Shown: positions 76-45,700 of the stretch, piece by piece
How positions within the stretch are numbered: the first letter of the stretch is position 1
Layout of the letters: every line of letters starts with the position of its first letter
Virus record (IMG/VR): IMGVR_UViG_3300031525_000001
Coordinates: 122,276 to 186,275 of that record
Strand: one strand, 5' to 3'
Length of the DNA stretch: 64,000 nt
From: a virus
Notes under the pieces: generated by a model
Database searches by the model: none
What the model saw: only the letters and a program-made list of their open reading frames with translations
What the model was told of the DNA's origin: nothing
Position numbers and translations under genes: made by a program

Positions 76-393
76 ATGGGCAAGCTTCGTGCGGCGACAA
101 CTTTCGGATTAGGGGCTCAAAAATCCGCTGATTCCAGCGTTTTCACGGTTAATCACTTCATTTCCAGCACCCCCGTACCCCCCGCCCTCAAGCAAAAGAT
201 CGCCAGCATGGGACTTGAACGGATAGCTGGCAATATATATGAATCACCGAGCACTCGGGATTTTTGGAAAGTAAAAGGAAACAGTATCATAAAGCTAGTT
301 GGCGATGAGGTAGACAATGGAGAGTCAATCGCCGCCGCCCCTAAAAACGACCCTATGGGTTTTATGGGTGCTTTTGACGATATCGAGTTCTAA
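76..393 (+). CDS. hypothetical protein, possible virion-associated
   Basis: ATG 76 follows GAGGG; begins MGKLRAA, similar to the K-x-A-A motif; no family recognised. Confidence 0.6.
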   Translation: MGKLRAATTFGLGAQKSADSSVFTVNHFISSTPVPPALKQKIASMGLERIAGNIYESPSTRDFWKVKGNSIIKLVGDEVDNGESIAAAPKNDPMGFMGAFDDIEF

Positions 394-394
394 C

Positions 395-1015
395 ATGCTG
401 ATTTACAAGCTCACAAATCGAATCAACGGTGGGGTCTACATCGGCAAATATGTCGGAGATGAGGCAGACGCTCGTTTTCAACAGCACGTTCGCGAAGCGA
501 GACGGGGTGGGGATCGTTACCTATGCCGCACTATTCGCAAGTACGGCTCGGATGCCTTCAAGGTCGAAGTGATTTATCGTGCCAAGACCGCTGATGAACT
601 CTCCAAGATGGAGACCTTTTTCATCGTTCTCCATCAAAGTCATAAAGTTGAGAACGGCTACAACATGACGCTGGGCGGTGAGGGAACTGTGGGCCGGATT
701 ATTTCGGAAAGAACAAGACAGCTTTGGAGTGAGCAGCGTAAAGGAAGACCTGTCACAGCGCAACAGTTGAAAAACCTAGCTCTTGGGCATCATCGACCGA
801 AAAAAATAGTTGCGGTTAAACCCGCCGAAGAAGTGGAAGCCGCAATGAAAGCAGCGATGCGGGCTGCATGGACTCCCGAACGTAGGGCAGCACAAGCACA
901 GCGGATAGCAAATCGGAATCGTCTTCGTGTTGGAAAACGTGGAGCATTATCTACGGAATGGAAGATGGCGATTTCAAATGCAAAGAAGGGGAAAGCAGCT
1001 TCGGCTGCGGCATAA
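395..1015 (+). CDS. GIY-YIG homing endonuclease with NUMOD3-like C-terminal repeats
   Basis: LIYKLTNRINGGVYIG, conserved R and E, GYNMTLGGEG, then basic helical tail. Start taken at ATG 395, just after the previous stop. Confidence 0.85.
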   Translation: MLIYKLTNRINGGVYIGKYVGDEADARFQQHVREARRGGDRYLCRTIRKYGSDAFKVEVIYRAKTADELSKMETFFIVLHQSHKVENGYNMTLGGEGTVGRIISERTRQLWSEQRKGRPVTAQQLKNLALGHHRPKKIVAVKPAEEVEAAMKAAMRAAWTPERRAAQAQRIANRNRLRVGKRGALSTEWKMAISNAKKGKAASAAA

Positions 1016-1019
1016 ACCT

Positions 1020-2963
1020 ATGGCAGAAGAAAAGAAACCGTACACTAGCATCGTTGACGCATTCTTGGATGACCGCGAGCCCGCATGGAAGGACCTCGGC
1101 TTGAAGGACGCACAGGACTCAGGTGAAGAACAATTGGATCGTTCTCACCAGTACATCGATGATGAGTTCATGGACGACATCGCTGAGAGCGCCAGCAGGC
1201 ACACCCCACTGTGGCCGGGTCGCACTGGTTCAGCCGAGAAGAATGCTCAGCGGGATAGTCTTGAACGGGCTCGCGGTACGCATCTTGAGCGCATGGCTGC
1301 AAAGGACGGCACGGATGTATTCGAAGGTAGCAGTGTAAAAGGCTCAAGCGCCAATTGGCGTGTACAGGCAACCCAGCATCAGGAAGACTACAGTGGGAAG
1401 CTGGGCGACGATGACTCGCTGTTCGCCGAAGTAACGGAAACACTGGAATCGGCAGCCTCCACAGGCAAGGTCGAGAAGAAGAACGTGTCGGACGCACAGG
1501 TTTTGACTTACGTCCACAGCCTGCTCAATCAGGGTATGGCACCGTCAAAGATCGCCGCAAAGCTGAAGAAGCTGGCTGAGATCGAGTTGTTCAACCACCA
1601 GATGGCGACTCAATACCTGCAAGAGAACGCAGGACTGGTAGGCATGGCGTTCCTCGAACCCAACACCTACATGGACAAGAATTCCCCGACTTATGAACGA
1701 GAGAAGCACGGCAGTTCGAGCAACGGCTGCGTAGCGCAGAAGACGGCGTGGGACAAGGCCGGCATTAAGCCCCGAGCGGCATCCGTAAAGCAGATCAGCG
1801 CGTGCGAAGGATGCCAGTATTTCTCGAAGAACGGCAACGTTAAGTCCTGCGGTGTCTATCACTTACCAGTGGTAGCGACCACCAAGGAGCTTACACCCAT
1901 CGTGAATAAGCTCACGGCTGGCGTGCCGAACAAGCAGAAGCGGGCAGCATTGGTTCAGATCGCCAATGGCAACGACGGCACCAAGGTCGGTTCCATGCCC
2001 ATTGCTCCGAAGACAAGCTCCTCCGTTTCCCGTCACCCGAGTCTCGGCGGCGTGGAAGCGCAGGCAAAGCGTGTGGGTCGCGTGATCGCGACTGATTTCG
2101 ATTCTTCGCACATTGCTGCGTTGCATGAGAAGGGTCACTCACTGGCGGTTATCGCTCGTGCGGCTGAAAAGCGGTACGGTGCGTTTGCGGCGGGCAAGGC
2201 GGTACGTGAGTTCGTAGGCAGCTTGCGGCCGAACGTGAACGGACAGATCGTTCTGGCAAAGGCTGATGCGGAGTTCCTCGCAAAGGCCGGTATGCATAAC
2301 CAGAATTTTGTGGCGGGTGCGAAGTGTGCATCCTGTGCCACACACTCGGCAGTGGTACAGAAACACAAGGTGACGGCGAACGCTAACTATGCCTCCCGTG
2401 TTCCACACGCAGGGTTCCACGAGAGCAACCCCGATCAGGTACGTCACGCACACCGTGCGGCTGCACCTGAACTTGATGCCAGCGTCATCGAGCGGTATCA
2501 CAAGAAGGGTCACTCGATGGAGAAGATTTACAAGCAGGCGGCAGCGAAGTTCGGCACCGCTCAGGCAAGCAAGGCAGTGAAAGAGTTCATCGCCAGCCTG
2601 AAGAAGAAGCCGATCAAGGTTGCGCTATCGCAGATCGACTGCACGTTCCTCAAGAACAAGCTTGCCGATCACAACCCAATTATCGGGGCACACAAGTGCG
2701 GCTCTTGCACGTATCGCAAGGGGATGCACTGCGGTCTCACTGGCGGAACTCTCTTGAGCTTCCCCGGTATGGACAAAACGGCGTCCAACCACAAGGTCGG
2801 GGAGGGTGCGCCAGAGGATGGACGTACAATTCTTGCTGAGTTTGACTTGATGCCGAATAGTGGGCGTCCGGGCGACACGAAGATGGCCGACATCGATATG
2901 AATCCTCCCGCACGTCAAGACGTGCAGATAGGTAGCTCGTTTGAGCTAGGAGACATAGAGTAA
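1020..2963 (+). CDS. Cys-rich hypothetical protein with internal duplication, putative structural/head protein
   Basis: Start ATG 1020 (MAEEKKPY). Three CxxC clusters and two similar HxKGHS...KAVxEF repeats. Confidence 0.65.
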   Translation: MAEEKKPYTSIVDAFLDDREPAWKDLGLKDAQDSGEEQLDRSHQYIDDEFMDDIAESASRHTPLWPGRTGSAEKNAQRDSLERARGTHLERMAAKDGTDVFEGSSVKGSSANWRVQATQHQEDYSGKLGDDDSLFAEVTETLESAASTGKVEKKNVSDAQVLTYVHSLLNQGMAPSKIAAKLKKLAEIELFNHQMATQYLQENAGLVGMAFLEPNTYMDKNSPTYEREKHGSSSNGCVAQKTAWDKAGIKPRAASVKQISACEGCQYFSKNGNVKSCGVYHLPVVATTKELTPIVNKLTAGVPNKQKRAALVQIANGNDGTKVGSMPIAPKTSSSVSRHPSLGGVEAQAKRVGRVIATDFDSSHIAALHEKGHSLAVIARAAEKRYGAFAAGKAVREFVGSLRPNVNGQIVLAKADAEFLAKAGMHNQNFVAGAKCASCATHSAVVQKHKVTANANYASRVPHAGFHESNPDQVRHAHRAAAPELDASVIERYHKKGHSMEKIYKQAAAKFGTAQASKAVKEFIASLKKKPIKVALSQIDCTFLKNKLADHNPIIGAHKCGSCTYRKGMHCGLTGGTLLSFPGMDKTASNHKVGEGAPEDGRTILAEFDLMPNSGRPGDTKMADIDMNPPARQDVQIGSSFELGDIE

Positions 2964-3505
2964 TGAGTGAAAACATTGAGCGTGCAGAACTGGTAGTTGA
3001 TTTAGAGGGAAAGTACAACTCGGCGGCAGAAGACAAGAAACCGGGCAAGCGTGTCGAAAGTTCCAAGCTGACGGAGATTCGGACAAAGATTGAAGACCCG
3101 AATGTAAGTCAGGCGGAACTCAGCAAACTCATTGCCCTCGAAATGGCGGCGATTCTGGATGGCATGAACGAGCATCTGGATAAACCGAATTCGGGTATTA
3201 AAGGGATGGACGCTAACATCGCCATCAAGAGTCTCAGCGAGCAACTGAAGGGCGTTCGTGAACTCGGTCGTCAGATCATTGAGATGGACAACCAAGCGAA
3301 GCGTGACTTCATTAACTTCGACGGCGAGAAGTTCCAGTTTGTTGCAAGCCAGTGGATGCAGATGGGCGTTGCAGCCCTCCGTGCCATGGGCTGGGATGAA
3401 CACACGGTTACCAGCTACGTCAAGCAGTTCCGTAGCCAGATCGAAATGAACGAACTCCGCATCCGCAAGGAAGCGGAAAACATCGGCACAAACAAACAGA
3501 AGTAA
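2963..3505 (+). CDS. hypothetical alpha-helical protein
   Basis: TAATG coupling to the upstream gene; charged helical composition; no motif recognised. Confidence 0.65.
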   Translation: MSENIERAELVVDLEGKYNSAAEDKKPGKRVESSKLTEIRTKIEDPNVSQAELSKLIALEMAAILDGMNEHLDKPNSGIKGMDANIAIKSLSEQLKGVRELGRQIIEMDNQAKRDFINFDGEKFQFVASQWMQMGVAALRAMGWDEHTVTSYVKQFRSQIEMNELRIRKEAENIGTNKQK

Positions 3506-3526: not shown

Positions 3527-3985
3527 GTGGGCACCACTGAGCAAGCTAAAGAACGTCGAGATTCCCGCCGAGCCGCTGGATTATGTGGTAAGTGCTCCAA
3601 TCCAGCATTGCTCGGTAAAAGCCTGTGTGAGCTGCATCGGCAGCAAGACCGTAAGATAAACAAACGGTTTAGGGTCAATCAAAAACAGCGTGTGATCGCT
3701 GGCTATGGCGGAAAATGCCAGTGCGAAGGTGGGTGTGATGAATCGAGATTTGAGTTTTTGACGATAGATCATGTCAACAACGACGGTGCGGAACACCGTA
3801 GAAACCTCGGAAGTGGCGCAATCGGACCCATGTTGTATAAGTACATTATCGATAACAATTTTCCCGAGGAGTATAGACTACTCTGCTGGAATTGCAATTG
3901 CGCTAAGGGACACTATGGTGAGTGTCCTCACGTAAATGAAAAGAATGCTGTCGCTGCGATGTCAGTTTCGGCAGGAGGAAAGTAA
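3527..3985 (+). CDS. HNH endonuclease
   Basis: CQCEGGC...LTIDHVNNDG...RLLCWNCN, plus an N-terminal CxxC...C-H zinc motif. Confidence 0.8.
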   Translation: MGTTEQAKERRDSRRAAGLCGKCSNPALLGKSLCELHRQQDRKINKRFRVNQKQRVIAGYGGKCQCEGGCDESRFEFLTIDHVNNDGAEHRRNLGSGAIGPMLYKYIIDNNFPEEYRLLCWNCNCAKGHYGECPHVNEKNAVAAMSVSAGGK

Positions 3986-3986
3986 C

Positions 3987-6900
3987 ATGGCACAAAGTGG
4001 AAACACCGTAGCTCTTAAATCGTTCCAGTCCTTCATGGTCAATGACGGATTGCTGAGCAAAACTGTCGAAGCTATCAAAGCTGGTGAGAAGGAAGCTCGC
4101 TCCACGGGTAATGTGCAGAGTTTCGAAGTTTTCTACAAGGGCTTTCGTCAGAACATTGCCATCGGTCGCATCTACATCGTCCCCCCATCCGTTGCCGACA
4201 AGAAGGGGCAAGACTTCCCGACCGCCCTGCTCTATGGTTGCCTTGTCCGCACCTTTGGTGGTGAGGAAATCGGCGACATGATCTCCCACAAAATCGGTGA
4301 TACCGAATGGGATGAGTATTCTCAGGCGTCCTACGCATCGATCAAGAAAGAACTCTTCGGCACCGAAAACGACAAGTTCGCCGCCCTCATTTTGTTTGCC
4401 CCCAACTGGGTCAATAAGCGTGAGTACATCGGCTTCCAGTTCCCGAAGGATGACAACGAGCTTGCGAACCTGACTCGTCACTTAGTCTTCAGTTCGTACT
4501 TCGACCCCCGTCTGTCCTCGGCATTCGATGCCCTGATGACCGATGTGGAGACCTCGAAGTTCGATGTCACGGACATCACGCCGAAGATGAACTTCCCCGC
4601 CTTGGCCGAGAATCCGCTGAAGGAATTCCCACTGCTCACCAAGGAGGGTTCAAAGAAGAAAGCCCGCCTTGGGCTAACCATCAAGACCGCCGAAGAAGTC
4701 ACCAAGGCCGTACTAGAGCCGCAGGAGATGGACGTGTTCGAATCTTTGGACACGGCTCTCCGCAACAGCCTCTTGCCAAACGATTCCAAGGGCGTTGAGG
4801 ATGCTTCCGAGGGTAAGGCTCCGACAAAGGGTGAAATGGTTCCACGTCTCTCATCCAAGAAGGGTTCCGCCAAGGTTGCTCATGGCTACATCGCGTTCTA
4901 CGGCGGCAAGCGCATTGAGATTCAAGCCGACTCCCTCTATGGGGCGAAGTTGAAAGCCATCGAGATGCTGAAGGTTCCGAAGTCCAAACAGGGCTTGCTC
5001 GCGGTCGAGCTTGCCGAAAAGGACGGAGAACAGGTCACCACAACAATCACGTCGTCCGCCACTGCGGTATTCGAGACCCCGATTACAAACGTTGGTCCGG
5101 GTACTGAAGCCCATGACGAAGCCAACCAGCGCACCGAAGGCTACAAGGATGAGAAGGACACGCCAAAGGTTGTCATCAACAGCGCACCGATTGGTATCGC
5201 TCTCGACGAGACTGGTGTACCCCGCCGTCCAGAGGAAGAGCGTAAGTCCGCCGCAAGCAGTTACTACCCTGCTTCCGCTGGTAAGGCTCAAACTGAAAAC
5301 GCTGCGGTCGTGGAGAAACACGGTTATACCCAATTTAATTCCAAGCCAGACGGAACTTCCTTTTGGAAGAGTCCTATCGGAACTACCGCTGTTCTATACC
5401 CAAACGGAAGCTGGATGCACACAGGCGGTAAGGGAGATGGGGCAAAGGCCCTTAGCGAGCTTCTCATAAGCTACCACCACGAGAGAGTGCCAAAGGTCAG
5501 CAAGTCAGCAGCGTATGGCGACCGTCGCGATTTTCGGAAGATCGATATCTTCGTTAGCGGCAAGTATGTCGCAAGCACGACATGGGCTAGTTCCATAAAG
5601 GAAGCAATCCAAAAATACGAGGAAAAGAACCCGGGCTCGTGGGCTGGTGAAGTTAAGGCTCAATTTGATAAGAAAGGCTCGGCTGATAAAACTGCCGTAG
5701 ACTACAGCGGCAATTACCCCGAGGCAATCGGCGGTGGTTGGAATAAAGCGACGGCAGATGATCTGTCGAGCGGCTATTCCAAGCAGGTCGGCAACGGTTT
5801 GATGGATGAGACCCCCGACAAAGTAAAGGAACATTTGAAGAAAAATGTCAGTCAAGCCCGTCAGGGTCAGGATGCCCTGAAGGATCACAATGCATCATTT
5901 GACGCCGCCAAGTGGGGCGGACTGGGTGTGAAGCAGGCTTCCTCCCTGTGGGTAGGTTCCGCCAAGAAGGTTGCAGCCAATCTCGATGACTTCACTAGCC
6001 AGTACATTATAACCGCTCTATGGTCTTCGAATGATGAATCTGACCCCAGCGGCGGTGAGCCGTTGGATTCAAACTACGATATCCTCGATCTCGCACCGTC
6101 CTGCTTGCAGGCAATGACCGAAGATTGCGCGGGCTTCCAAGCGGAGAATCAAGAGCTTCTGGCTGCGGCATCCGAACAAGATGGTCAGGACGCCGAGCGT
6201 CAAGGTCATGATTTCTGGCTCACCCGCTGCGGTCATGGTGCGGGCTACTGGGATGGCGATTATCCGACAACGGGCGATGGTTTGACTGAAGCCGCCAAGA
6301 AATGGGGTAGCGTTGATCTGTACGTCGGTGACGACGACATGATCTATCAGATGGGGGCAGAAGACCCGAGTTCGCGTGGTTACGGACAGAAGGGCGGGCC
6401 TGCAAAGGCTGGCTCGAAGATGGCTTCCAAGAAGACCGCCTCGCAAAATGATGCATCATACATCGCCAGCTTGATCGGCGGCGGGGTGCATAGTGAAGAT
6501 TATGACGCTCGTTCGCAGCACTCCAGAACGGCGGCACAGAAGCGCGAAGACGAGATGGCTCGCAAGTATTCCTCTCAGCGTAAAAAGTTTGCCGACGTTC
6601 CTCAGGACATCGAAGACATTTGGTCTGAGACGATGGAAGACATGGGGCCAGCACCCGAGATCAGACTCCCGGGCGAGAGTGAGGACAACGAAAAGTCCAC
6701 CACAGGGGAGCACGAGATCGAGGCTCCAGAGATGGGCGCGGATTCGAGAAGCGACGTTCCTGAGCAGGTCAAGGGCGATCAGGAAGAGCCGACCGTAAAG
6801 GTTGAAGAGGCTCTTGAGAACGACACCACCAAGTCCGAAGAGGACGAGCCCAGCACGGGCGATGGTGGAGCGTCGGCGGACAGCGGTGAAACAAAGTCCG

Positions 6901-9770
6901 AAAAGAAGTCCGAGGGTGGTTCCCAGTCCGAATGGGCGAAGAACCGCAGCAAGGGTAAGTCCGAGAAGAAGGACGAGTCCGAAGAGTCTGAGGAAGAGCC
7001 GAAGGAAGAGGAGTCCAAAACGGCTGCTCGGCCCGGTGCCCGTCCTGCCAGACAGCGTGTCCGTTGCGATCAGTGCGAGATGTTGAGCATCAATGGCACG
7101 GCGACTCACGAGACAGGCTGCCCAAACCAGAATTCCCGCTGGGATGCTGACCGACAGGATTGGGTAAAGCAGCGTCGTTGCGGCGAATGCGGCATGGACG
7201 TTGACGCCGATGATCCGTGTTGTTCTGCGGAACCTGACTTCGACAACGGTTACGACGAAAACGATGAGCATTTTGGTGGGCTCGATGCTATCCTCGCTGA
7301 CGACACCGATGCAGTAATGGAGCAGGCGGAAGAAGCCGCAACAGCAGCCCCCGCTGTGTTCTATGAGTGCGGAGCCTGCGGCGGCGTGCACCCGTCCTTG
7401 GAGACTTCCGAAAGGCTCGGTCTCGGTTGGAACGGTGATTGTCGTGATGAGGTTGGTCACTTCGAAGACAGCGACGTTCCTTACGGAGACAACACTCAGT
7501 TCGTCACCTTGGAAGAGCAGATGGCTCCAGACTTCGATGACGCGATTCTGGCGTCTAAGACTGCGGACTATGCCGAGGGCGACCTTGAAACTTACTTCGA
7601 CGAAGGAAAGACGGCGGATTACGCCGAGGGCGATCTCGAAACCTACTTCGATGAGGGGAAGACGGCAGACTACGCCGAAGATGATTTTGCATCTTACTTC
7701 GGAGAGGAAAAATCGGCGGGACGTTCCACCACACCGAAGTACGTCATTCGTATTCCGGGTTCGACCGATGCCGCATGGAACGTGAGCGGTTACGGACAAC
7801 AGCGTGGTGCGGGCCAGCCAAACCAAGCGAACCTCGCACGGTACATGGAAGCTCTCTTGAAGAGCATGGAACCGGGCGGGCACAACGAGCATTTGGTGGG
7901 TCATTTCGACCCATCCGAAGCTGCGGTTTATCGCAACGACGGCACCTACAAGAACCCGTTGGCTACATGGTCGAAGGGTGAAGCGAAGCAGGGTGCGGAT
8001 GTCTCGGGCGATTTCTCGGAAGCGCATTCCGAGGTTGACAGCCCAGACACCGTGGATCAGGACATCAAGCAGCCGACCGAATCGGTAGGCGAAGCTGGTA
8101 AGAGAAAGAACGCTGATGTGGCGGAAGAAACCAAGGAAGAGCGGGCGAAACGTCTGGAAGATCAGCGTCAGCGCGATGCTCGTGAACTGACACGTCGCAA
8201 GGCGGCTGACATCTCGGGGGACATCTCTGAGGCTAAGTCGAACACGGAAAGCCCTGACGGGGTGGACGCCGACATTAAGCAGCCTACGGTTTCGGTTCCC
8301 GAAGCGGCACGCAAGAACGCTAAGGTGGGATTCACGTTCAATGGACAGCACCGTGAAGCTGCCTTTAGCGATCTCACACAAGCGGGGAAGTTCATAGCGG
8401 TAGCCTCGGCCAAATTTGGAAAATTGGCTAGTGACTGGACGATAACCGCAGCCGATGACGATGATGCGGCGGAAGATCAGTCCGTTGATTCGAAGAAGCC
8501 CGATGACGCTGAAGCTGACGAACCAGCCGAAGCTGCAAAGCCTGCGGATTCGAAGAAGCCTGATGAGACGAAGGGCAAGAACAAGCCCGCCGTTACTCCT
8601 CCCGCGAAGGCTGAAGCACCAGCGGCAGCACCAGCAGCACCCGCAGCGGCGGCGGTTCCAGCGGCGGCACCAGCCGTAGCAGCGCCAGCAGATGGTGCAG
8701 GTGGTAATGGAACCTCGGAAACTTCTGGTAACGAAACATCGACTGAAACTGGCGGTTCAAGTCCGGGTGGTGCATCAACTGGCGGCGTAGGTAGCGGCAT
8801 GGGTGGTGCAGGTACAGGCGGGGCTGGCACAGGCGGTGCCGCGACTAGCACGGGAACAGGCGGGGCTGGCACGGGTGGAACTGTGAGCATTGCACCAACG
8901 AGCACAAACTCAGCGGGTGGTGACGAAGGCGGCGGTGAAGACGGCAGCGTACAAGCTGCTGGTCAACCTGCTGGTGGGGCACAACCTAAAACCCCGACCA
9001 TCATCATCTACAACGGCGGCACGGGCGGTGCATCTACCGTCGATACGGATAGCGGTTCGGGTCCGGGCGGCGATGGGCCGGGTTCTGATGGAACTGGCGG
9101 CACGGGCGAAGGCTCTGGCGGCGGTGGAGGCGGCGGGGGTGGACGTGGAACTCCGCGCAACCCTGAACAGGCAGCGGATGCCGTTTCTCCGGGAGTTGAC
9201 AGCGACAATCGTCAACAAGGTGACTTGGCAGAACCACAGGGCAACCAGTCAAAGGGTAAGCCTTTGGCAACGAAGCCTGAAGGACAAGACGATCAGTTAA
9301 AGGGCAATGATAAGCCCGAGCTACGCGGTGACGCGCCTGTGGAGCCTCAGGAGCCACAGCCTCCACACGAAGACGCAGCAGACGACACGAAAGAAGCTGC
9401 CGCAGGAATGCCAGCCGAAGTCGGGGAATTCCCGTATGTCGAGACGCTGGTAGGTATGGGTTGGAGCGACGAGGGCGAACCGGGGCATTTCATGCTCGGC
9501 GATAGCCGTGTCGAAGTCCTGACGTACACCGATGGCTACGAAGTATACGTAGACGGCGAACTGTACGAATCAGGCGACAACGTGGATGAACTCCAGAACA
9601 CACTGGAACTCGTTGCCGAACTCGGTGTGGATGCGTTGAATGCACATCAGGCCTCAGATGACAAAACAGCATGTGCGGGCTACGGTGACGAAGAAGATGA
9701 AGAGCGTCCAATCGATCTCGGTATCGGCGATCTAGCGGACTTGGTTGTGGAGAAGGAAGATGCCCATTAA
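3987..9770 (+). CDS. giant multi-module polyprotein (about 1927 aa) with recurrent K-x-A motifs
   Basis: AGGAGG RBS before ATG 3987. Short modules separated by KTA/KSAA/KVAA/KFA/KNA, with acidic linkers, tandem repeats and a Gly/Thr/Ala low-complexity tract. Confidence 0.8.
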   Translation: MAQSGNTVALKSFQSFMVNDGLLSKTVEAIKAGEKEARSTGNVQSFEVFYKGFRQNIAIGRIYIVPPSVADKKGQDFPTALLYGCLVRTFGGEEIGDMISHKIGDTEWDEYSQASYASIKKELFGTENDKFAALILFAPNWVNKREYIGFQFPKDDNELANLTRHLVFSSYFDPRLSSAFDALMTDVETSKFDVTDITPKMNFPALAENPLKEFPLLTKEGSKKKARLGLTIKTAEEVTKAVLEPQEMDVFESLDTALRNSLLPNDSKGVEDASEGKAPTKGEMVPRLSSKKGSAKVAHGYIAFYGGKRIEIQADSLYGAKLKAIEMLKVPKSKQGLLAVELAEKDGEQVTTTITSSATAVFETPITNVGPGTEAHDEANQRTEGYKDEKDTPKVVINSAPIGIALDETGVPRRPEEERKSAASSYYPASAGKAQTENAAVVEKHGYTQFNSKPDGTSFWKSPIGTTAVLYPNGSWMHTGGKGDGAKALSELLISYHHERVPKVSKSAAYGDRRDFRKIDIFVSGKYVASTTWASSIKEAIQKYEEKNPGSWAGEVKAQFDKKGSADKTAVDYSGNYPEAIGGGWNKATADDLSSGYSKQVGNGLMDETPDKVKEHLKKNVSQARQGQDALKDHNASFDAAKWGGLGVKQASSLWVGSAKKVAANLDDFTSQYIITALWSSNDESDPSGGEPLDSNYDILDLAPSCLQAMTEDCAGFQAENQELLAAASEQDGQDAERQGHDFWLTRCGHGAGYWDGDYPTTGDGLTEAAKKWGSVDLYVGDDDMIYQMGAEDPSSRGYGQKGGPAKAGSKMASKKTASQNDASYIASLIGGGVHSEDYDARSQHSRTAAQKREDEMARKYSSQRKKFADVPQDIEDIWSETMEDMGPAPEIRLPGESEDNEKSTTGEHEIEAPEMGADSRSDVPEQVKGDQEEPTVKVEEALENDTTKSEEDEPSTGDGGASADSGETKSEKKSEGGSQSEWAKNRSKGKSEKKDESEESEEEPKEEESKTAARPGARPARQRVRCDQCEMLSINGTATHETGCPNQNSRWDADRQDWVKQRRCGECGMDVDADDPCCSAEPDFDNGYDENDEHFGGLDAILADDTDAVMEQAEEAATAAPAVFYECGACGGVHPSLETSERLGLGWNGDCRDEVGHFEDSDVPYGDNTQFVTLEEQMAPDFDDAILASKTADYAEGDLETYFDEGKTADYAEGDLETYFDEGKTADYAEDDFASYFGEEKSAGRSTTPKYVIRIPGSTDAAWNVSGYGQQRGAGQPNQANLARYMEALLKSMEPGGHNEHLVGHFDPSEAAVYRNDGTYKNPLATWSKGEAKQGADVSGDFSEAHSEVDSPDTVDQDIKQPTESVGEAGKRKNADVAEETKEERAKRLEDQRQRDARELTRRKAADISGDISEAKSNTESPDGVDADIKQPTVSVPEAARKNAKVGFTFNGQHREAAFSDLTQAGKFIAVASAKFGKLASDWTITAADDDDAAEDQSVDSKKPDDAEADEPAEAAKPADSKKPDETKGKNKPAVTPPAKAEAPAAAPAAPAAAAVPAAAPAVAAPADGAGGNGTSETSGNETSTETGGSSPGGASTGGVGSGMGGAGTGGAGTGGAATSTGTGGAGTGGTVSIAPTSTNSAGGDEGGGEDGSVQAAGQPAGGAQPKTPTIIIYNGGTGGASTVDTDSGSGPGGDGPGSDGTGGTGEGSGGGGGGGGGRGTPRNPEQAADAVSPGVDSDNRQQGDLAEPQGNQSKGKPLATKPEGQDDQLKGNDKPELRGDAPVEPQEPQPPHEDAADDTKEAAAGMPAEVGEFPYVETLVGMGWSDEGEPGHFMLGDSRVEVLTYTDGYEVYVDGELYESGDNVDELQNTLELVAELGVDALNAHQASDDKTACAGYGDEEDEERPIDLGIGDLADLVVEKEDAH
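7557..7721 (+). repeat. three in-frame 51-nt repeats (KTADYAEGDLETYFDEG) ending at a fourth K-S-A
   Basis: K codons at 7557, 7608, 7659, 7710. Copies 1 and 2 have identical peptides but differ at synonymous positions. Confidence 0.9.
7986..8322 (+). repeat. two about 40-aa coding repeats (ADxSGDxSEAxS..SPDxVDxDIKQPTxSVxEA..RKNA)
   Basis: Copies start at 7986 (KQGA) and 8199 (KAA); both end in RKNA. Confidence 0.8.
8450..9400 (+). repeat. low-complexity coding tract (D/E/K/P, poly-A/P, G/T/S-rich)
   Basis: PAAAPAAP, GGAGTGG repeats and a GGGGGGGG run within the 3987-9770 ORF. Confidence 0.8.
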
Positions 9771-13142: not shown

Positions 13143-13667
13143 ATGAGTAGCCTACCGCAGTATAAAGGTAAAACTCGTCAGCAGTACATGAGTGAGTGGC
13201 ATAACAAGTATCGTGCATATTGGAGCACGCACGATGCGTATGTTGAAACCAAGTCCAAAATTTGCGTGTACTGTGAAAAGGAAAAGCCGAGCGTTGCTTT
13301 TTCCAAGGCAAACACGAACAAGGATGGGTTACAGGCATACTGTATCGACTGTCTCAAGCAGTGGCACATCGATGATCCAACACGTCAAATGCTGCTCAAC
13401 GCCCGTGCCCGAGCCCGTCGTTTGGGAATTGAATTCGCTCTTGATGCAAAGGATATAGTAATTCCGAAAGTTTGCCCCGTTTTGGGTATCCCGCTTGTCG
13501 TGAGATCAAAGGGGAAAAACAACTCTCCGAGTCTGGATAGGAAGGATAACTCTAAGGGATACACCTCAGATAACATTCGAGTGATCTCGTGGCGGGCAAA
13601 TGATATCAAGGGGAACGCCACTGTCGCTGAGCTAGAAAAAGTGTTAGAATACATGAAGGAAGCATGA
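13143..13667 (+). CDS. HNH-type (His-Me finger) endonuclease
   Basis: CPVLG...SPSLDRKDNSKGYTSDNIRVISWRANDIK, with N-terminal CxxC...CxxC. Confidence 0.8.
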   Translation: MSSLPQYKGKTRQQYMSEWHNKYRAYWSTHDAYVETKSKICVYCEKEKPSVAFSKANTNKDGLQAYCIDCLKQWHIDDPTRQMLLNARARARRLGIEFALDAKDIVIPKVCPVLGIPLVVRSKGKNNSPSLDRKDNSKGYTSDNIRVISWRANDIKGNATVAELEKVLEYMKEA

Positions 13668-14720: not shown

Positions 14721-16853
14721 ATGGCTGACAAGAAAGTCAAAAGTACAACTTGGACAAAGCTCGCAGACAATCTCCTGCCTGACGCGACAAAGAAGATCAA
14801 TGCCATTGACTTCATTGAAGGCCCGGGTGGGACAGGTCTCGTTCTGCGTCCTGTTCAGCGTGTTCTTGTCAAAGCACTTTTCGCCGTTCCCTTTGACTAC
14901 CGCCCCAAGTGGGCAGACTCCATCGACAACTGGGGAATGGTGGAGATGTGGAATCCCTTCCGTGATGAGCTACTCCGCACGGTTACGGAAGAAGAGTATC
15001 TCCACATCGTTCACGAAGAGGGTCGCTGCAACGTCGGAGACTGGCGGGACATACCACAAAGAGGATTCAACGAAGGCGTCATCTTCTGCGGTCGTCGTGG
15101 TGGTAAGTCCGAAGTCGTCGCCGCCATCGCCGCCTACAAACTCTACCTCACTTTGTGCATCAACTCGCCGCAGAAATTCTTCGGCTTGGCTGAGGGTTCC
15201 AAGATCGACTTCACCTTTCTTGCACAGGACGAAACAGGTGCGGGTCGATTGTTCCAAAAGCTTCAGGCCGCTGTCACCCGTGCCACGTGGTTCCACACCT
15301 ACATCAAGGACAGCAACGCCAAGAACCTGACGTTTACTTGCGAAGCTGATCGTCACCATAAGGTCGATGCCAAGCCGTCTATTCAAGTCGTATCGCTGCC
15401 CTGCACCACGAACGCCGTCCGTGGTCCTTCGTCCCTCTTCCTCGCCCTTGACGAGTTTGCCCACTTCCGTTCCGAAGTAGGCTCCACGTCTGAAGACATG
15501 TACGTAGCCGCTACGCCTGCCGCTGGCGACTTCCACCACGAAGAAATCACCGCCCCTCCCGTGCTCCATGAAGCCGACTTTCACCAAGCTGGCGATTTTA
15601 AGCACGCGGAACCAGTTGGTACAGAAGGCAAGGTTGAAGTTCAGGACTCACTGATTCTGAGCATCTCGTCGCCACTGAAGAAAGTCGGTATGATGTACGA
15701 TCTCTACCGCATGGCGATGGAGGACGGCATCAACGAGGACAACCCGACGTTCGCCCTCAGTTGCTCATCGGCGGAAATGAACCCCAAGCTCAAGGCCGGG
15801 TTCTTGCGTGATAAGGCTCGTAAAAACCCCCTCACGTTTAAGGCTGAGTACGGCGGACAATTCTTGGAATCTACGGAATCGTTCGTTCGATCCATCGACA
15901 TCATGACCTGCACGGATGTCACCGCGTGGGATGTCAAAACCGAACCCACATTCGGCGTTCTTGCGCCCGCACCGGGAGCAATCGTTCGTCAAAACTGCGT
16001 GCGATTCAACGGAGATCAGGTGGGCTACAACTACTTCTGGGGTCTTGATCTTGGCGGCGTGAACGTCACCGATCCTGATAACAGCCGACCCGATGGTTGC
16101 GCGTTGGCGATTGGACATCTTGAGGTTCGTCAATCGACTAATCCGACGCCCGGGTTGACGCATGGTTTTCATTTGGTGTTCGACTACATCGACCGCATGA
16201 TCGCGGGAGAACTTTTCGAAGGTCCCGGCGTCACCGTCTCGACGCCTGAGGGTATGAAATACACGGATTTTCAACTCCTACCCGTGAAGGACATTCTGCT
16301 CTGGTTGAAGGAGATGAACAAAATCCTCCCATGCTACAAAGGCTCAACCGATCAACACGCAGGTCGTCAGCTTATCACCTTGCTGGAACAGAATGAAATC
16401 AACAACATGGAGTTGGTGAACCTCACACCTGCCATCAACTCGGAAATGGCGTATGCGTTGCGCTCGTTCATCAACGACCACACCGCCAACTTTCCGTATG
16501 TGCCCAAGTTCATCCATGAAATCAAAATGGTTGAGACCGACGTGGTTGCCAAATACCGTATCCGCGTCCATGCTCCTCTGGAAAAGGGAGCCCACGACGA
16601 CATGGTAGATGCGGTCATGCTCGTCGCTATGCAGGTTCAGACGTGGTTGATAGACGAGGGTCACCTCAAGATGGACCCCACGGGGCAGAGCCTCATCATG
16701 CAGCGTCAGCAAGCACTTCCGAAGAGATCGATCCTCAACATAGACGCCATGAGTATGAGCGACTTAAAGGCGAGTGAACGGGCGTACCAGATGAGCAAGT
16801 TCAAGTTTGGCGGCGGCAGCCACAGGGTTGCTAGAGGCCGACGAGGACGTTAG
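14721..16853 (+). CDS. terL: terminase large subunit
   Basis: Walker A GRRGGKS (15090), Walker B LALDEFAH, motif III SISSP, nuclease motifs WGLDLG, DQHAG and HDDMVDA; GGGAG RBS. Confidence 0.85.
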   Translation: MADKKVKSTTWTKLADNLLPDATKKINAIDFIEGPGGTGLVLRPVQRVLVKALFAVPFDYRPKWADSIDNWGMVEMWNPFRDELLRTVTEEEYLHIVHEEGRCNVGDWRDIPQRGFNEGVIFCGRRGGKSEVVAAIAAYKLYLTLCINSPQKFFGLAEGSKIDFTFLAQDETGAGRLFQKLQAAVTRATWFHTYIKDSNAKNLTFTCEADRHHKVDAKPSIQVVSLPCTTNAVRGPSSLFLALDEFAHFRSEVGSTSEDMYVAATPAAGDFHHEEITAPPVLHEADFHQAGDFKHAEPVGTEGKVEVQDSLILSISSPLKKVGMMYDLYRMAMEDGINEDNPTFALSCSSAEMNPKLKAGFLRDKARKNPLTFKAEYGGQFLESTESFVRSIDIMTCTDVTAWDVKTEPTFGVLAPAPGAIVRQNCVRFNGDQVGYNYFWGLDLGGVNVTDPDNSRPDGCALAIGHLEVRQSTNPTPGLTHGFHLVFDYIDRMIAGELFEGPGVTVSTPEGMKYTDFQLLPVKDILLWLKEMNKILPCYKGSTDQHAGRQLITLLEQNEINNMELVNLTPAINSEMAYALRSFINDHTANFPYVPKFIHEIKMVETDVVAKYRIRVHAPLEKGAHDDMVDAVMLVAMQVQTWLIDEGHLKMDPTGQSLIMQRQQALPKRSILNIDAMSMSDLKASERAYQMSKFKFGGGSHRVARGRRGR

Positions 16854-42136: not shown

Positions 42137-42679
42137 ATGGCAGTCGCACCCTTCACCCGCATTGTGGTCGATAAGAAGGAGGAGGCGAAGTTCCGTCGCC
42201 GAGCCCTGAATCATTACCCATTGGAATACATGGAAGCCCTGTGGGGCAAAGTACGCAGCGATATCCTCTACATTCATGCCTTTGTGAAGGTCGATCACAA
42301 GCCCGGAAAACGCACCCTTCGGTACGAGGATTACGAGATCGATGAACATGAAGAGGACGCAGCCGAGATCGGGTTGACTTACCTCGGCACCATTCACACC
42401 CACCCGAACGCCAACGACGCCCAGTTCAGCGAAGTTGACTGTGAGCAGTCGCAGGATTCTCAAGACGTGATGATGGGTATCTGTGCCATCCAAACTACCT
42501 ATCTTGATGAGGAAACCAAGACTCAAAAGCCCCTGAACCGCAAGGTCGTCCGCGTTGAATACTGGCCTACTGTGACCCCGCTCATCGCAATTCGCCGCGA
42601 TACACCGCCCTCAAGGTCGGTCAAACGAGCCCTCAAAAGGGGCTATAAACTGGCGAAAAAGAAGAAGTCCCGCCGTTGA
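42137..42679 (+). CDS. JAB/MPN+ metallopeptidase
   Basis: N-terminal E (PLEYM) and GTIHTHPNANDAQFSEVD (HxH-x7-S-x2-D). Confidence 0.8.
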   Translation: MAVAPFTRIVVDKKEEAKFRRRALNHYPLEYMEALWGKVRSDILYIHAFVKVDHKPGKRTLRYEDYEIDEHEEDAAEIGLTYLGTIHTHPNANDAQFSEVDCEQSQDSQDVMMGICAIQTTYLDEETKTQKPLNRKVVRVEYWPTVTPLIAIRRDTPPSRSVKRALKRGYKLAKKKKSRR

Positions 42680-42708: not shown

Positions 42709-45700
42709 ATGAACCCATTGCTTCGGAAGATAGCCAAACAGCCCGCGACCACGACCTCATTCTTTGAGACAGACGGCTTTCTCTATCACGGCACCACGTT
42801 ACGAGACCTCAAGTCCATCCTGACCGAAGGGAAGGTGGAGGGGCACAGCTATTGGGGCGTGAGGGAGACGGCGGACATGTATGAGGGCGGGGCCATGTTA
42901 CGGCTGCCCGTTAGCAGGTTCAACGAAGCCTTTCTACTCCCTGACGAGAACATGATTCAAGACCCGTATTTCATGGAAGACGAGAACGGGGATTACGATC
43001 AGAAGAAAATGAACGCCACGAATCGTGCGTGGAAGGCGAGCAAGAAGACGTGGATGGATTCGCTGAAGATTTGGGGAGCGGTCATGTACGATGAGGATAT
43101 GCCCGTCACACCAGCCGATGCTATCGAAGGTCGGCAGGTTATGGCGAGCAAGACCGCAACCGAGTTGCCGCCGCTTAAGTTCACCCAACCATCGGATAGG
43201 AAGCTCGAAGACTACGAGCTAGTTTGGGTTGATACGCAAAAGTTAGATCGCGAGTGGTCGAAGGACAAACACCTGTACCTCGCTCCGGGGGATAAAACCA
43301 ATCACATCGGCGACCGCTACGCTCGCTTTACCCAGTGGCGGCAGGACAACCCCAACACCCCAGTTGAGGCTCCTATTGTGTCGTGGAGCGACAATGCGGG
43401 TGGTGAGGCGCATTTCACCAACGGTCGGCACCGCTTCTCCGTGCTCCGCGATCAGGGTTACCCAAAGGTTCAAATCATGGTGCCGCAGAGCCAAATCGAG
43501 ACGTTCAGCAAACTGGCATCCTCTTCGGTACGGGAAATCAACATCTCGGAAGATCAGGGTTCCGCAGAAGGGTACACAGCGGACACCAATGCGGAACAAC
43601 TCCAGAATTGGCTCGACCGTTTCGGCTACACGAACAAAGAGTTTGTTGCCGACCTGCGGAAGAAGTATGACACCTTCGCCGTTCTAAACAACATCAACGT
43701 ATACGAGGATTCCCGTGGCAAGGGCTACGGGGACTATCTGCTTGCCGAGTTCTTGCGAGAAGCCGGGGATCGCGGTGCGGGCATCTGTCTGTTGGTTGCC
43801 GACACCGCTGAGGAACAAGCCCAAGGCTTCAATTTGGTGGAGTGGTACGAACGCAACGACTTTGAGCAGGTTGCCTCGGTCTACGGCGGGGAACTGATGA
43901 TAATGGGCATCATGAATCCCAAGGTTGCGGCACAGAAAACCGCCGCCGATATCGGTCAGGTCAAGAACATCATTAACGAAATGATGGGCGTGCTCGCTTC
44001 CGGGCTCCCGCATCCCGAAGTCAAGATCGTAAACCAGACCAACCGTATGCTGGGGTACGATGTGTGGGAACGGGGTAGGGATGAGGCGGGTAACACTTGG
44101 GGTGCGGACAACACCACAATCGGCATTCAGAAGTCCATACTGGGGCACGAGGAATCGCTTCGCCGTACTATCGCTCACGAACTGTGTCATCATGAAGTGG
44201 CTCTGCTTATTGGGAAGCCGAAACTCATGGAAGTCGGGTTCGACGCCTACAACAAATACAAAAAGCTACTCGCACCCGAGGGACACGGCAAAGAATGGCA
44301 GGCCGTCGCCGCTCGCTTCAATGCGAAGTACGGAGCGGACTTCGTGACCGAGTTCTCCGATCAGAGTGTCATCAGCGATGAGCCAACGAAAGAATACTGG
44401 CTCCTGCTCAATAACTACGTCTACGGTCGGCACAAGCAACGTTTGGGCTGGCAATGGGCGCTGGGGCTCAGCCGTCAGGCTATGGCGTACCTCGATGGAC
44501 TCGATTGGACTTCGGGAGAATTCAAGCTGGTCAAAACGAACGACCACGTGTTTACTCGTGGGCGTGGGCGTATCAAACAATACGGCGGATGGAATCTGCC
44601 CCGCACCCCAGAGCAGGAGCAGAAAATTCAGGACCTTTGGGCGAATGCTCCGATGGCGAAGTTCGGTTGTTCCGCCGCTCAGGATGAAGCCGACATTGAG
44701 GCAGCAAAGAAAGCCAAGTCAGGTCCCCACAAAAACGCCACGTCTCAAATCAACCTGCCGCCTGATGCCGCCTCCGGGATGATGGAAGCCGCCAAGCAGA
44801 TTCCAGATGAGGAACTCGGCAAGGATGGTCGTGAGGACGATCCACACATCACAGTTAAGTACGGGGTAAAGCCCGACCCCGCTCTGTTGAGTCAAGTTGT
44901 AGGCGAGCAGCAACCGTTTACGGTCACGCTAGGGAAGACGCACGTATTCTCCGTGAGCGAAAGCTCTGACGCCCAAGCCCCCATCGTGGTTCAGTGTCAC
45001 GCTCCCGAACTTGAGGCTCTCCACAACAAGGTCGCAGAAGCGATGGGCACCCGCAAAGATGATTTTCCCTACGTACCGCACGTGACCCTTGCCTACGTCA
45101 AGCCTGACGCTGCCGCCAAATATGAGGGAATGGATTGGGCCGAGGGCATTTCCTTCCAAGTGGACAGCATCACCCTGAGTACGAAGGGTGGTGGTCAGGT
45201 TCGAGTACCTTTCGGTAAGCCGCGAAAGTCAGCATCCCACAAGACGCCGCCGATGAGCGACACGCAGTACAGGAATCCCGAGATGGGCGAGGAGACGAAT
45301 GCTTACGCCGACATCCCCGAGCGTGTGATGGGTGTGGAAGACCTGCCGTCGCTTGAATCGCTTTCACCCGACCTGTTCAAGACGGGAGCGGGCAGCGTGT
45401 ACGATCTTGATTTACAGGACGTGGTTGCTTGGGGTGGTAGCCTCAGCGAGGCACAGGGCGATTGGGATAAGATCAGGTCCGAAGCCGCTGGACGTGCGAA
45501 AGCCGAAGGCAAGGATTGGGAGAAGATGCCCGAGGCTGAGCAGGAAGTGTGGCTCGACAAGATCGGCTGGGAGTGGCTCGGGGCGACATGGGAAATCACT
45601 ATGAATCGCCTTCAATCCCTGAAGTTCCCCCTCACGGTTTACCGTGGGCTGGGCTCGGTGAGCCTTAAGGAAATCAACAAGGGTCAATACGCGGAGAAGG

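Follow-up and report, generated by a model that had tools for sequence, protein, structure and literature searches.

What is a reading frame of nearly two thousand codons, whose translation looks like a row of small phage genes joined end to end, and what is the tripeptide K-x-A that recurs along it? The window, a stretch of 64,000 nucleotides, comes from an uncultured soil jumbo phage. The first-pass annotation had described the ORF as a concatemer of normally free-standing genes, captured by in-frame fusion behind a cleavage tag and so turned into packaged cargo.

Architecture of the polyprotein gene

The reading frame spans 3936-9770 on the + strand and encodes 1944 aa from its first in-frame ATG at 3936. 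The ATG at 3987 matches the N-termini of the orthologues and gives, with the stop at 9770, a protein of 1927 aa (P0001). The ORF is real. Pfam and NCBIfam searches with the whole of P0001 and with every piece gave no hits, and a megablast of the whole ORF against phage records found no match. P0001 consists of at least 10 distinct segments, which are given below together with neighbouring genes.

3987-9770, + strand: P0001 polyprotein gene
3987-4880, + strand: conserved N-terminal carrier domain, aa 18-315, ending in KVA
4881-5021, + strand: module B, variable cassette with solo homologues (phrog_19202, Axy24_031)
5061-5252, + strand: backbone block ETPITNVGPG...DETGVPR, ending in KSA, kept in all orthologues
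5253-5510, + strand: module C, variable cassette, no solo homologue found, missing in L013
5511-5696, + strand: module D, variable cassette, one solo homologue (P0154)
5697-5975, + strand: backbone block E, ending KQA...KVA, conserved in six orthologues
5976-6353, + strand: module F, a member of the phrog_1915 family and an insertion in the backbone
6354-7025, + strand: linker (KMA, KTA), backbone block (..DIWSETMEDMGPAP) and acidic low-complexity stretch up to KTA
7026-7244, + strand: module H, Cys-rich and zinc-ribbon-like, in all orthologues, very many solo homologues
7245-7565, + strand: second Cys-rich stretch, no K-x-A between it and H, no solo homologue seen
7557-7709, + strand: three tandem 51-nt repeats, each encoding KTA and a 14-residue acidic spacer
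7719-7991, + strand: module J, cassette with an autonomous alpha/beta fold and solo homologues
7992-8321, + strand: spacer repeats (D-V/I-SGD..EA.S..SPD.VD..IKQPT..), ending in KNA, KAA and KNA, common to orthologues
8322-9398, + strand: module L, then an Ala/Pro/Gly-rich low-complexity region, ending in KEA, missing in L013
9399-9671, + strand: module N, ending in KTA, in close relatives only
9672-9767, + strand: C-terminal tail (..ID.G.GDLAD.V..), the end of every orthologue
927-3505, + strand: pair of conserved genes upstream, encoding partner proteins of 678 aa and 180 aa
9760-13092, + strand: P0002, second polyprotein gene; its ATG at 9760 follows GGAGAAGGAAG and overlaps the P0001 stop
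14721-16853, + strand: large terminase subunit, downstream of the P0001/P0002 pair as in relatives

All orthologues share a conserved carrier. It opens with the N-terminal domain, about 300 aa long, closes with the C-terminal tail, and has several short blocks and the spacer repeats in between. The N-terminal domain has 39% identity to residues 1-262 of gp350 of the isolate Tunturi_5 and 55-60% identity to seven metagenomic orthologues. Because its AF2 model (pLDDT 48) was too poor for a structure search, a capsid-targeting role for this domain is a guess. The C-terminal 280 aa of P0002 show 45% identity to the C-terminus of the same gp350. P0001 and the translationally coupled P0002 together are best read as an expanded and split version of gp350, a single protein in Tunturi_5-like jumbo phages. 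The upstream partners have homologues in Tunturi_5 (gp348 and gp349) and among the L013 genes, and the 678-aa partner is also enriched in K-x-A. In the window, in L010 and L013, and in Tunturi_5 alike, the polyprotein locus immediately precedes the gene for the large terminase subunit.

K-x-A occurs 27 times in P0001 against 15.3±3.6 expected, and none of 1000 shuffles reached this count; about half of the 27 sites are attributable to chance, and two fall within the conserved N-terminal domain. Across 11 related polyproteins 218 motifs were observed against 110 expected, while the other X-x-A and K-x-X classes in the same proteins occurred at 0.5-1.7 times expectation and none reached 2-fold. 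K and A of aligned junctions are conserved and x changes. The over-representation is thus specific to K-x-A among these classes. No long DNA-level repeat that might serve as a recombination site was found at the junctions, only the threefold 51-nt repeat and low-complexity matches.

Free-standing relatives of the modules

Solo homologues, put at 60-130 aa overall, were found for all five of the modules (B, D, F, H and J) that had been put forward as independent small genes. Module F (DDFTSQYI...GHDFWLTR, residues 682-804) matches phrog_1915 at positions 8-139 of 141 (E 9.6e-26). Its free-standing genes encode 127-218 aa in every case inspected and are found in Stephanstirmvirinae, Dolichocephalovirinae, mycobacteriophages and others; of the 357 phage records matched, most were matched through this module. 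Module B (GYIAFYGG..., residues 318-361) matches positions 17-60 of the 61-aa profile phrog_19202 (E 6.4e-8), of which it covers the conserved core. A solo gene of 61 aa, Axy24_031, is present in an N4-like Achromobacter phage (Schitoviridae).

The solo form of module D (RKIDIFVSG...) is a single metagenomic ORF of 70 aa, P0154 (E 1.7e-7, 50% identity); a match to positions 8-48 of the 51-aa phrog_17358 is weak (E 0.049). Module H (RCDQCEMLSING...) has 101 matches in all at E<=1e-10, and the best 150 matches listed include about 100 solo proteins of 60-150 aa, of which one belongs to a T4SS element. Module J (KYVIRI...NLARYMEAL) has solo homologues of 78-104 aa. Its AF2 model is good (pLDDT 85.7) and matches solo proteins of 93 and 100 aa in BFVD, with no informative match in the PDB (Foldseek E>1, VIA Z<=3.5). 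The solo homologues of H and J are metagenomic only, and tblastn searches of isolated phages with H, J or the H-L span gave nothing significant.

For pieces C, E, L and N no solo homologues were found, with C-E searched together and C also alone. The sole match to N, P0153, was rejected as a solo homologue since it is a contig-end fragment of an orthologue. No paralogues of the P0001 modules were found elsewhere in the same genome, and no solo copies of modules B-L in Tunturi_5. The picture of a concatemer of small genes holds for the five modules, about one fifth of the ORF; the remainder is conserved carrier, low-complexity sequence (about 480 aa) or further modules. Where solo genes could be placed, they belong to strings of 14-24 small ORFs that all point the same way; one adjoins a T4SS coupling protein. 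This gene neighbourhood suggests that they may be expressed early.

Module boundaries and cassette exchange

The check that had been proposed, splitting the protein at the motif, came out positive: pieces match stand-alone ORFs, and the N-termini of these ORFs fall at the motif. The homology-defined starts of B, F, H and J lie 2, 1, 12 and 0 residues past a K-x-A, and a summed distance this small has a chance probability of 1.4e-4 by simulation. Module D also starts 0 residues past the motif. In two modules the Met of the solo protein coincides exactly with the Ala of the tag and residue 2 is aligned to the first post-tag residue; the P0154 Met, encoded by an ATG preceded by an RBS, aligns with the Ala of the KSA of module D. 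Solo J proteins start M-GRSxTPKY, and the J copies in the arrays follow KSA (P0001), KVA (P0004) or KTA (P0003) and then read GR[ST]xTPKY. Methionine aminopeptidase removes Met before Gly. Loss of Met from the solo J proteins would therefore leave the same mature N-terminus as a cut past the tag Ala. The C-terminal ends of the modules fit the motif less well. Between 6 and about 100 residues of linker come after them, and the downstream joints of B and J are only variants, K-D-G and K-Q-G-A. The idea that captured genes keep their Met was rejected, as Met follows the tag at 6 of 274 sites, which is background.

The L013 orthologue has about 73% identity to P0001 in shared blocks and carries other modules at two positions, with a Cys-rich module in the place of B. 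Of the four breakpoints of these exchanges, three coincide with K-x-A in both phages; the remaining one, on the 3' side of the first exchange, does so in L013 only. This orthologue appears split into 958 and 749 aa. The split was rejected as a gene boundary: it is a 1-nt frame break inside a conserved stretch, for which an assembly error is the simplest explanation. Module F, with K-x-A on both sides, is inserted into a backbone that is conserved in five other orthologues. Seven more distant orthologues have other module sets, each bounded by K-x-A. The modules are cassettes: they vary among close relatives, are exchanged mostly at the tag, and at least five match complete free-standing small genes, found in other phages and in conjugative elements. 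The proposal that the arrays grow by gene capture is supported in part: the swapping of whole modules, mostly at K-x-A, and the insertion of F stand, and capture is the putative direction of transfer. A tree of the H domain (66 columns) interleaves embedded and solo copies without resolution and leaves room for a single origin; it was dropped as a guide to the direction or number of captures.

The tag as a probable protease site and the proposed fate of the chain

In this genome K-x-A-[ASDG] is in excess only in the giant ORFs, the scaffold-like protein, the protease and the N-terminus of the major capsid protein (roughly 85 observed against 30 expected, compared with 54 against 47 in the remaining genome). 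The scaffold-like protein adjoins the protease gene. Tunturi_5 shows the same pattern in gp328 (a "DNA ejection protein"), gp350, gp332, gp348, gp345, the portal and the major capsid protein. In both phages the motif thus marks capsid, scaffold-like and protease proteins alike, and its excess goes no further than the proteins named, as expected of head-protease substrates on the pattern of T4 gp21 and phiKZ gp175. The head-maturation protease gene, at 80281-81183 of the genome and outside the window, was reached through Tunturi_5 gp331 and phrog_18299. The S77 and S78 prohead-protease Pfam models gave no hits in the genome, and the putative protease matched nothing in Pfam or among PDB sequences, only phrog_18299. 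K-x-A is probably the cutting site of the phage capsid protease.

The account that best explains these features, and that we consider probable, is that cassettes joined by K-x-A on a gp350-type carrier are cut by the head protease and travel as packaged cargo. Small autonomous modules are strung through K-x-A onto the carrier, and K-x-A would be the recognition site of the protease. The chain would join the prohead by co-assembly and be cut past the Ala into many proteins of 50-130 residues and spacer peptides, and the released proteins would leave the capsid along with the DNA. The cargo would therefore be in place when infection begins, whereas other phages and plasmids would have to transcribe and translate the same proteins first. 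New cargo would be added by in-frame fusion of a small gene at an existing tag.

Parts of this scheme have counterparts in known systems. T4 packs small anti-host internal proteins into its prohead, where the protease trims them, and injects them with the DNA; gp21, the prohead protease, takes the capsid-targeting sequence off IPI-III and Alt by cleavage at L/I-x-E. As proposed for the P0001 cargo, the short motif serves for capsid and scaffold proteins as well. T4 however has one gene with its own targeting peptide per cargo, whereas P0001 has many units on one carrier, joined by K-x-A. The herpesvirus assemblin, of the same structural superfamily as the phage prohead proteases, cuts maturation sites of the type (V/L/I)-x-A|S. 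The proposed K-x-A cut would likewise have Ala at P1 and a specificity-determining P3; it differs in having Lys at P3 and mostly Asp or Ala at P1', and its putative protease matches only phrog_18299. In phiKZ and SPN3US, gp175 and gp245 are reported to cleave inner-body and ejection proteins at S/A/G-x-E or A-x-E (PMC5694885, PMC10052503, PMC7411985). These are also jumbo myoviruses, in which many proteins inside the head are processed at one tripeptide motif, recognisable by its enrichment in head proteins, but they belong to another clade, use another motif, and carry paralogous large proteins with propeptides rather than exchangeable module arrays.

The polyvalent proteins of phages and conjugative elements combine 2-15 or more unrelated domains per polypeptide, with MPTase, ART, ParB-like, methylase-helicase, ArdC-N and others as hallmark domains (PMC5512222). 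P0001 shares with them its many unrelated domains and its place on the terminase side: they too are giant, multi-module proteins encoded beside packaging and structural genes, and for both, co-delivery with DNA and cutting into pieces are predicted. P0001 and its pieces however have no hallmark or enzymatic domain of this class by Pfam or NCBIfam, and the cargo consists of small ORFan-type proteins. The joints of P0001, unlike those of polyvalent proteins, are one defined tripeptide common to capsid proteins, which suggests the head-maturation protease and not an embedded zincin peptidase. The same genome does contain a textbook polyvalent protein, a 3883-aa ORF at 42709-54360 with ART-like, ParB-like, GNAT, HExxH, 2H and Nudix modules.

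The chain might instead remain uncut, a beads-on-a-string polyvalent protein in which K-x-A is a linker signature or a recombination scar. Some module junctions do lack a strict K-x-A, and the N4 virion RNA polymerase is packaged without processing (summarised in PMC5512222). This is nevertheless unlikely, as one tripeptide is specifically enriched and not a Lys/Ala-rich composition, two phages have this motif in the scaffold-like protein, in the protease and at the N-terminus of the major capsid protein, and the predicted cut would reproduce the mature N-terminus of the solo J proteins. A cut at K-x-A by some other peptidase, maybe outside the capsid or after injection, is also improbable. 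Candidates are the HExxH module of the 3883-aa ORF and a stand-alone JAB/JAMM protein, encoded by a 180-aa gene at 42137-42679 between two polyproteins, with the motif HTH-x7-S-x2-D. JAMM enzymes, however, cut after Gly-Gly-type C-termini and not after Ala. Processing by embedded zincin-like peptidases has been proposed for polyvalent proteins by Iyer et al. (PMC5512222), but the motif is present in classical substrates of a head protease (the major capsid protein, the scaffold-like protein and that protease itself), which speaks against such an enzyme here.

The direction of transfer could also be the reverse, with the solo genes as fission products escaped from arrays. The unresolved mixing of embedded and solo copies in the H-domain tree and the failure to retain Met past the tag would agree with fission. 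It is nonetheless very unlikely: the solo forms are far commoner and taxonomically wider (F, B and the roughly 100 H proteins listed), embedded forms are seen in this clade only, and F interrupts a backbone that is otherwise conserved.

For polyvalent proteins, an origin by assembly of solo domains has been put forward before: they were described as "pieced together from solo versions" (Iyer, Burroughs, Anand, de Souza and Aravind 2017, PMC5512222). Hitherto the growth of polyvalent and cargo polyproteins had been argued from domain distributions only. In P0001, unlike polyvalent proteins, exchange of modules at the tag is visible directly between relatives, and insertion and replacement of cassettes at a putative cleavage tag give residue-level evidence for polyprotein growth. 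Most small phage genes have no known function, and several widespread ORFan families appear here as putative protease-bounded cargo. One of them is also encoded next to a conjugative element's coupling protein. Together this is a concrete hint that the families are active as invasion begins. More tentatively, at somewhat less than even chances, K-x-A may be a universal adaptor in this clade of soil jumbo phages: fusion in frame behind it would turn any small gene, such as early or leading-region ORFans of other elements, into capsid-loaded, protease-released cargo. If so, the arrays would be a natural catalogue of first-acting ORFans, most plausibly anti-defence or take-over factors. Tunturi_5, published together with its host (PMC11924767), is a cultured relative in which the cleavage and packaging claims are directly testable. 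The families named in the adaptor reading are phrog_1915, phrog_19202, the CDQCE zinc-ribbon family and the GRSxTPKY family.

Gene organization and the conserved carrier

The window forms the 64-kb end of an IMG/VR phage contig of 186 kb, whose completeness is estimated at 58%. The closest isolate is Tunturi_5, a 309-kb Acidobacteria jumbo myovirus with 41.6% identity in the large terminase. Two polyprotein genes lie in tandem:

3936-9770, + strand: P0001, the polyprotein ORF under study, 1944 open codons
from ATG 9760, + strand: P0002, the second polyprotein gene, behind GGAGAAGGAAG and overlapping the stop of P0001

The N-termini of P0001 orthologues agree with the ATG at 3987, the start given by the first-pass annotation. 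In Tunturi_5, gp350 (1080 aa; Phold annotation 'DarB-like antirestriction') matches P0001 residues 20-279 with its N-terminus (39% identity) and P0002 residues 838-1114 with its C-terminus (45%). By sequence, the pair is thus one conserved protein, encoded immediately upstream of the terminase, that has been split and greatly expanded. Upstream, the genes at 927-2963 and 2963-3505 are homologous to gp348 and gp349. Two metagenomic loci, L010 and L013, also have the two-gene form. The separating stop is not universal, since in the metagenomic relative P0003 (residues 519-610) the frame runs beyond the conserved ..GDLADLVVEKE tail into more Cys-rich modules, each preceded by the Lys-x-Ala tag (K-x-A). 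The L013 orthologue, on a 122-kb contig, is called as two genes of 958 and 749 aa; the break (L013 9990-10010) is a 1-nt frame shift within a conserved stretch, the alignment carries on in the other frame, and an assembly error is the probable cause of the split.

An N-terminal domain (55-60% identity) is common to seven orthologues of 800-1450 aa, as are a number of short blocks, the H module, D-I/V-SGD spacer repeats and a C-terminal ..GDLAD.V.. tail. Between these common features the small modules vary, and K-x-A bounds each. The L013 orthologue, a close relative of P0001 with about 73% identity in shared blocks, differs at two sites: a Cys-rich module replaces module B, and a Cys-rich stretch of 135 aa plus a YVAHVPGH module replaces C and D. 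Three of the four identity breakpoints fall at K-x-A in both proteins, and the fourth is tagged in L013 only. Module F carries tags of its own on either side and is an insertion relative to five other orthologues, in which the two blocks around it adjoin each other. The ORF had been described as a concatemer of small phage genes captured by fusion behind a cleavage tag. This description fits the variable cassettes, with their solo homologues, exchange at tags and the F insertion, but conserved carrier and low-complexity sequence together make up about half of the ORF.

The K-x-A tag and the head protease

P0001 contains 27 K-x-A against 15.3±3.6 in shuffled sequences, and none of 1000 shuffles got to 27. 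Across 11 related proteins 218 were observed and 110 expected. This excess goes beyond a Lys/Ala-rich linker composition, because the 38 other X-x-A and K-x-X classes in these proteins all occur at only 0.5-1.7 times expectation. Thr, Gln and Lys are preferred at P2 and Asp and Ala at P1'. At 7557-7709 a 51-nt repeat occurs three times in tandem (100%, 82% and 73% identity); each copy encodes KTA plus an acidic 14-residue spacer, and so the spacer-plus-tag unit has duplicated locally.

The contig encodes the following head genes:

head-maturation protease: phrog_18299, homologue of Tunturi_5 gp331
scaffold-like protein: adjoins the protease gene, homologue of gp332
major capsid protein: phrog_2522, homologue of gp334

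Residues 1-30 of the major capsid protein contain two K-x-A, kept in both phages; the protease has tags close to both ends; and the scaffold-like protein has 22 against 11 expected. Genome-wide, K-x-A-[ASDG] is in excess in the giant ORFs, these three proteins and a 678-aa upstream gene (roughly 85 against 30 expected; other genes, 54 against 47). In the examined parts of the Tunturi_5 genome, the same ranking gives gp328 'DNA ejection protein', gp350, gp332, gp348, gp345, the portal and the major capsid protein. A third giant ORF outside the window (genome 94599-100505, 1968 aa) partially matches gp328; its 14 K-x-A-[ASDG] against 4.1 expected are the second-strongest enrichment in the genome.

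The tag is thus probably the head-protease site. Head proteases work inside the prohead, and since the sites are shared, the polyprotein chain would be loaded there and cut after the Ala of K-x-A. Trimming of capsid cargo at a defined motif has mechanistic precedents in the T4 internal proteins and the phiKZ and SPN3US ejection proteins. Alternatively, the chain might stay uncut as beads on a string, or be cut by another peptidase encoded in the window:

42137-42679: stand-alone protein with a JAMM/JAB motif, immediately upstream of the next ORF
42709-54360: polyvalent protein, 3883 aa, with about ten YHGT-type ART-like plus ParB-like, GNAT, HExxH, 2H and Nudix modules

Cutting by the JAB protein or the HExxH module would parallel the model of Iyer et al. 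(2017, PMC5512222), in which polyvalent proteins, 'pieced together from solo versions', are packaged and processed. The 3883-aa ORF is a classical polyvalent protein of that description and has K-x-A-type tags between its modules as well. Such proteins are already known; new here are the particular K-x-A code of this phage clade, cargo of small ORFan families rather than enzymes, and evidence at the level of single residues that cassettes are captured and exchanged at the tag.

Modules with free-standing homologues

Five modules have solo relatives, free-standing small proteins homologous to one module:

P0001 residues 318-361: module B, phrog_19202, E 6e-8
P0001 residues 526-587: module D, one solo homologue, E 1.7e-7
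P0001 residues 681-806: module F, phrog_1915 nearly end to end, E 1e-25
P0001 residues about 1031-1103: module H, starting 12 residues past a tag
P0001 residues 1262-1352: module J, solo proteins of 78-104 aa, end-to-end alignment

Searches with pieces C, L and N detected no solo relative. The proposal that the pieces exist as free-standing genes holds for B, D, F, H and J. Its corollary, that stand-alone ORFs end where the motifs lie, was borne out for the N-termini: B, F, H and J start 2, 1, 12 and 0 residues after the tag, a summed distance with a simulated chance probability of 1.4e-4, and in D and J the solo Met lies opposite the tag Ala.

Module B ends at the C-terminus of its solo relative (gene 031, 61 aa, of an N4-like Achromobacter phage). 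Solo D has an RBS-preceded ATG whose Met aligns with the Ala of KSA, and stops 6 residues short of the next KTA. Free-standing F genes are 127-218 aa in all inspected, with matching records from Stephanstirmvirinae, CbK-like phages, mycobacteriophages and others; Klebsiella phage FBKp34 gene 044 (127 aa) has the same end as module F, and 7-8 residues opposite P0001 ..AKKVA. Among 150 matches listed for H, about 100 are solo proteins of 60-150 aa; many begin 0-2 residues ahead of the first Cys, and others have a short basic leader resembling the 12 residues after KTA in P0001. In six of seven solo J proteins the initiator Met takes the place of the Ala of KSA, and the tag before J in relatives is KVA or KTA. 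A cut after that Ala would leave J with an N-terminal Gly, the N-terminus of solo J once Met is removed. Module J is predicted to form an autonomous alpha/beta fold (pLDDT 85.7) and matches solo proteins of uncultured phages in BFVD, 93 and 100 aa long; against solved structures the model gave no informative match.

Direction of transfer and neighbouring genes

A rival reading is that arrays gave rise to solo genes; the tree of the H domain, being short, does not settle the direction. Capture of solo genes into arrays is favoured because solo forms are far more widely distributed and F is inserted. Solo J genes lie within runs of 14 to 24 or more co-directional small ORFs, one of them on a 98-kb phage contig, divergent from the terminase-portal module. 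Solo H genes belong to a 22-gene run of small ORFs (L011) or adjoin UvrD/ParB genes (L017). At L018 7593-7805 and L019 4013-4225 a 70-aa solo H lies in a small-ORF run right after the genes for TrbL, VirB8 and a TraG/TrwB-type T4SS coupling protein; the element is conjugative and not a phage.

HNH/endonuclease-VII-like genes (3527-3985 and 13143-13667; phrog_1035, phrog_3322) stand either side of the polyprotein pair. They look like inserted homing endonucleases; no gene occupies the 3527-3985 position in L010, L013 or Tunturi_5. A paralogous family has seven members of about 100-250 aa:

window 317-1015
genome 86204-86953, 93998-94609, 104189-104794, 120573-121328, 154402-155058 and 183561-183863

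One of these genes immediately precedes the giant ORF at genome 94599-100505, and a second is found upstream of the P0001 cluster.
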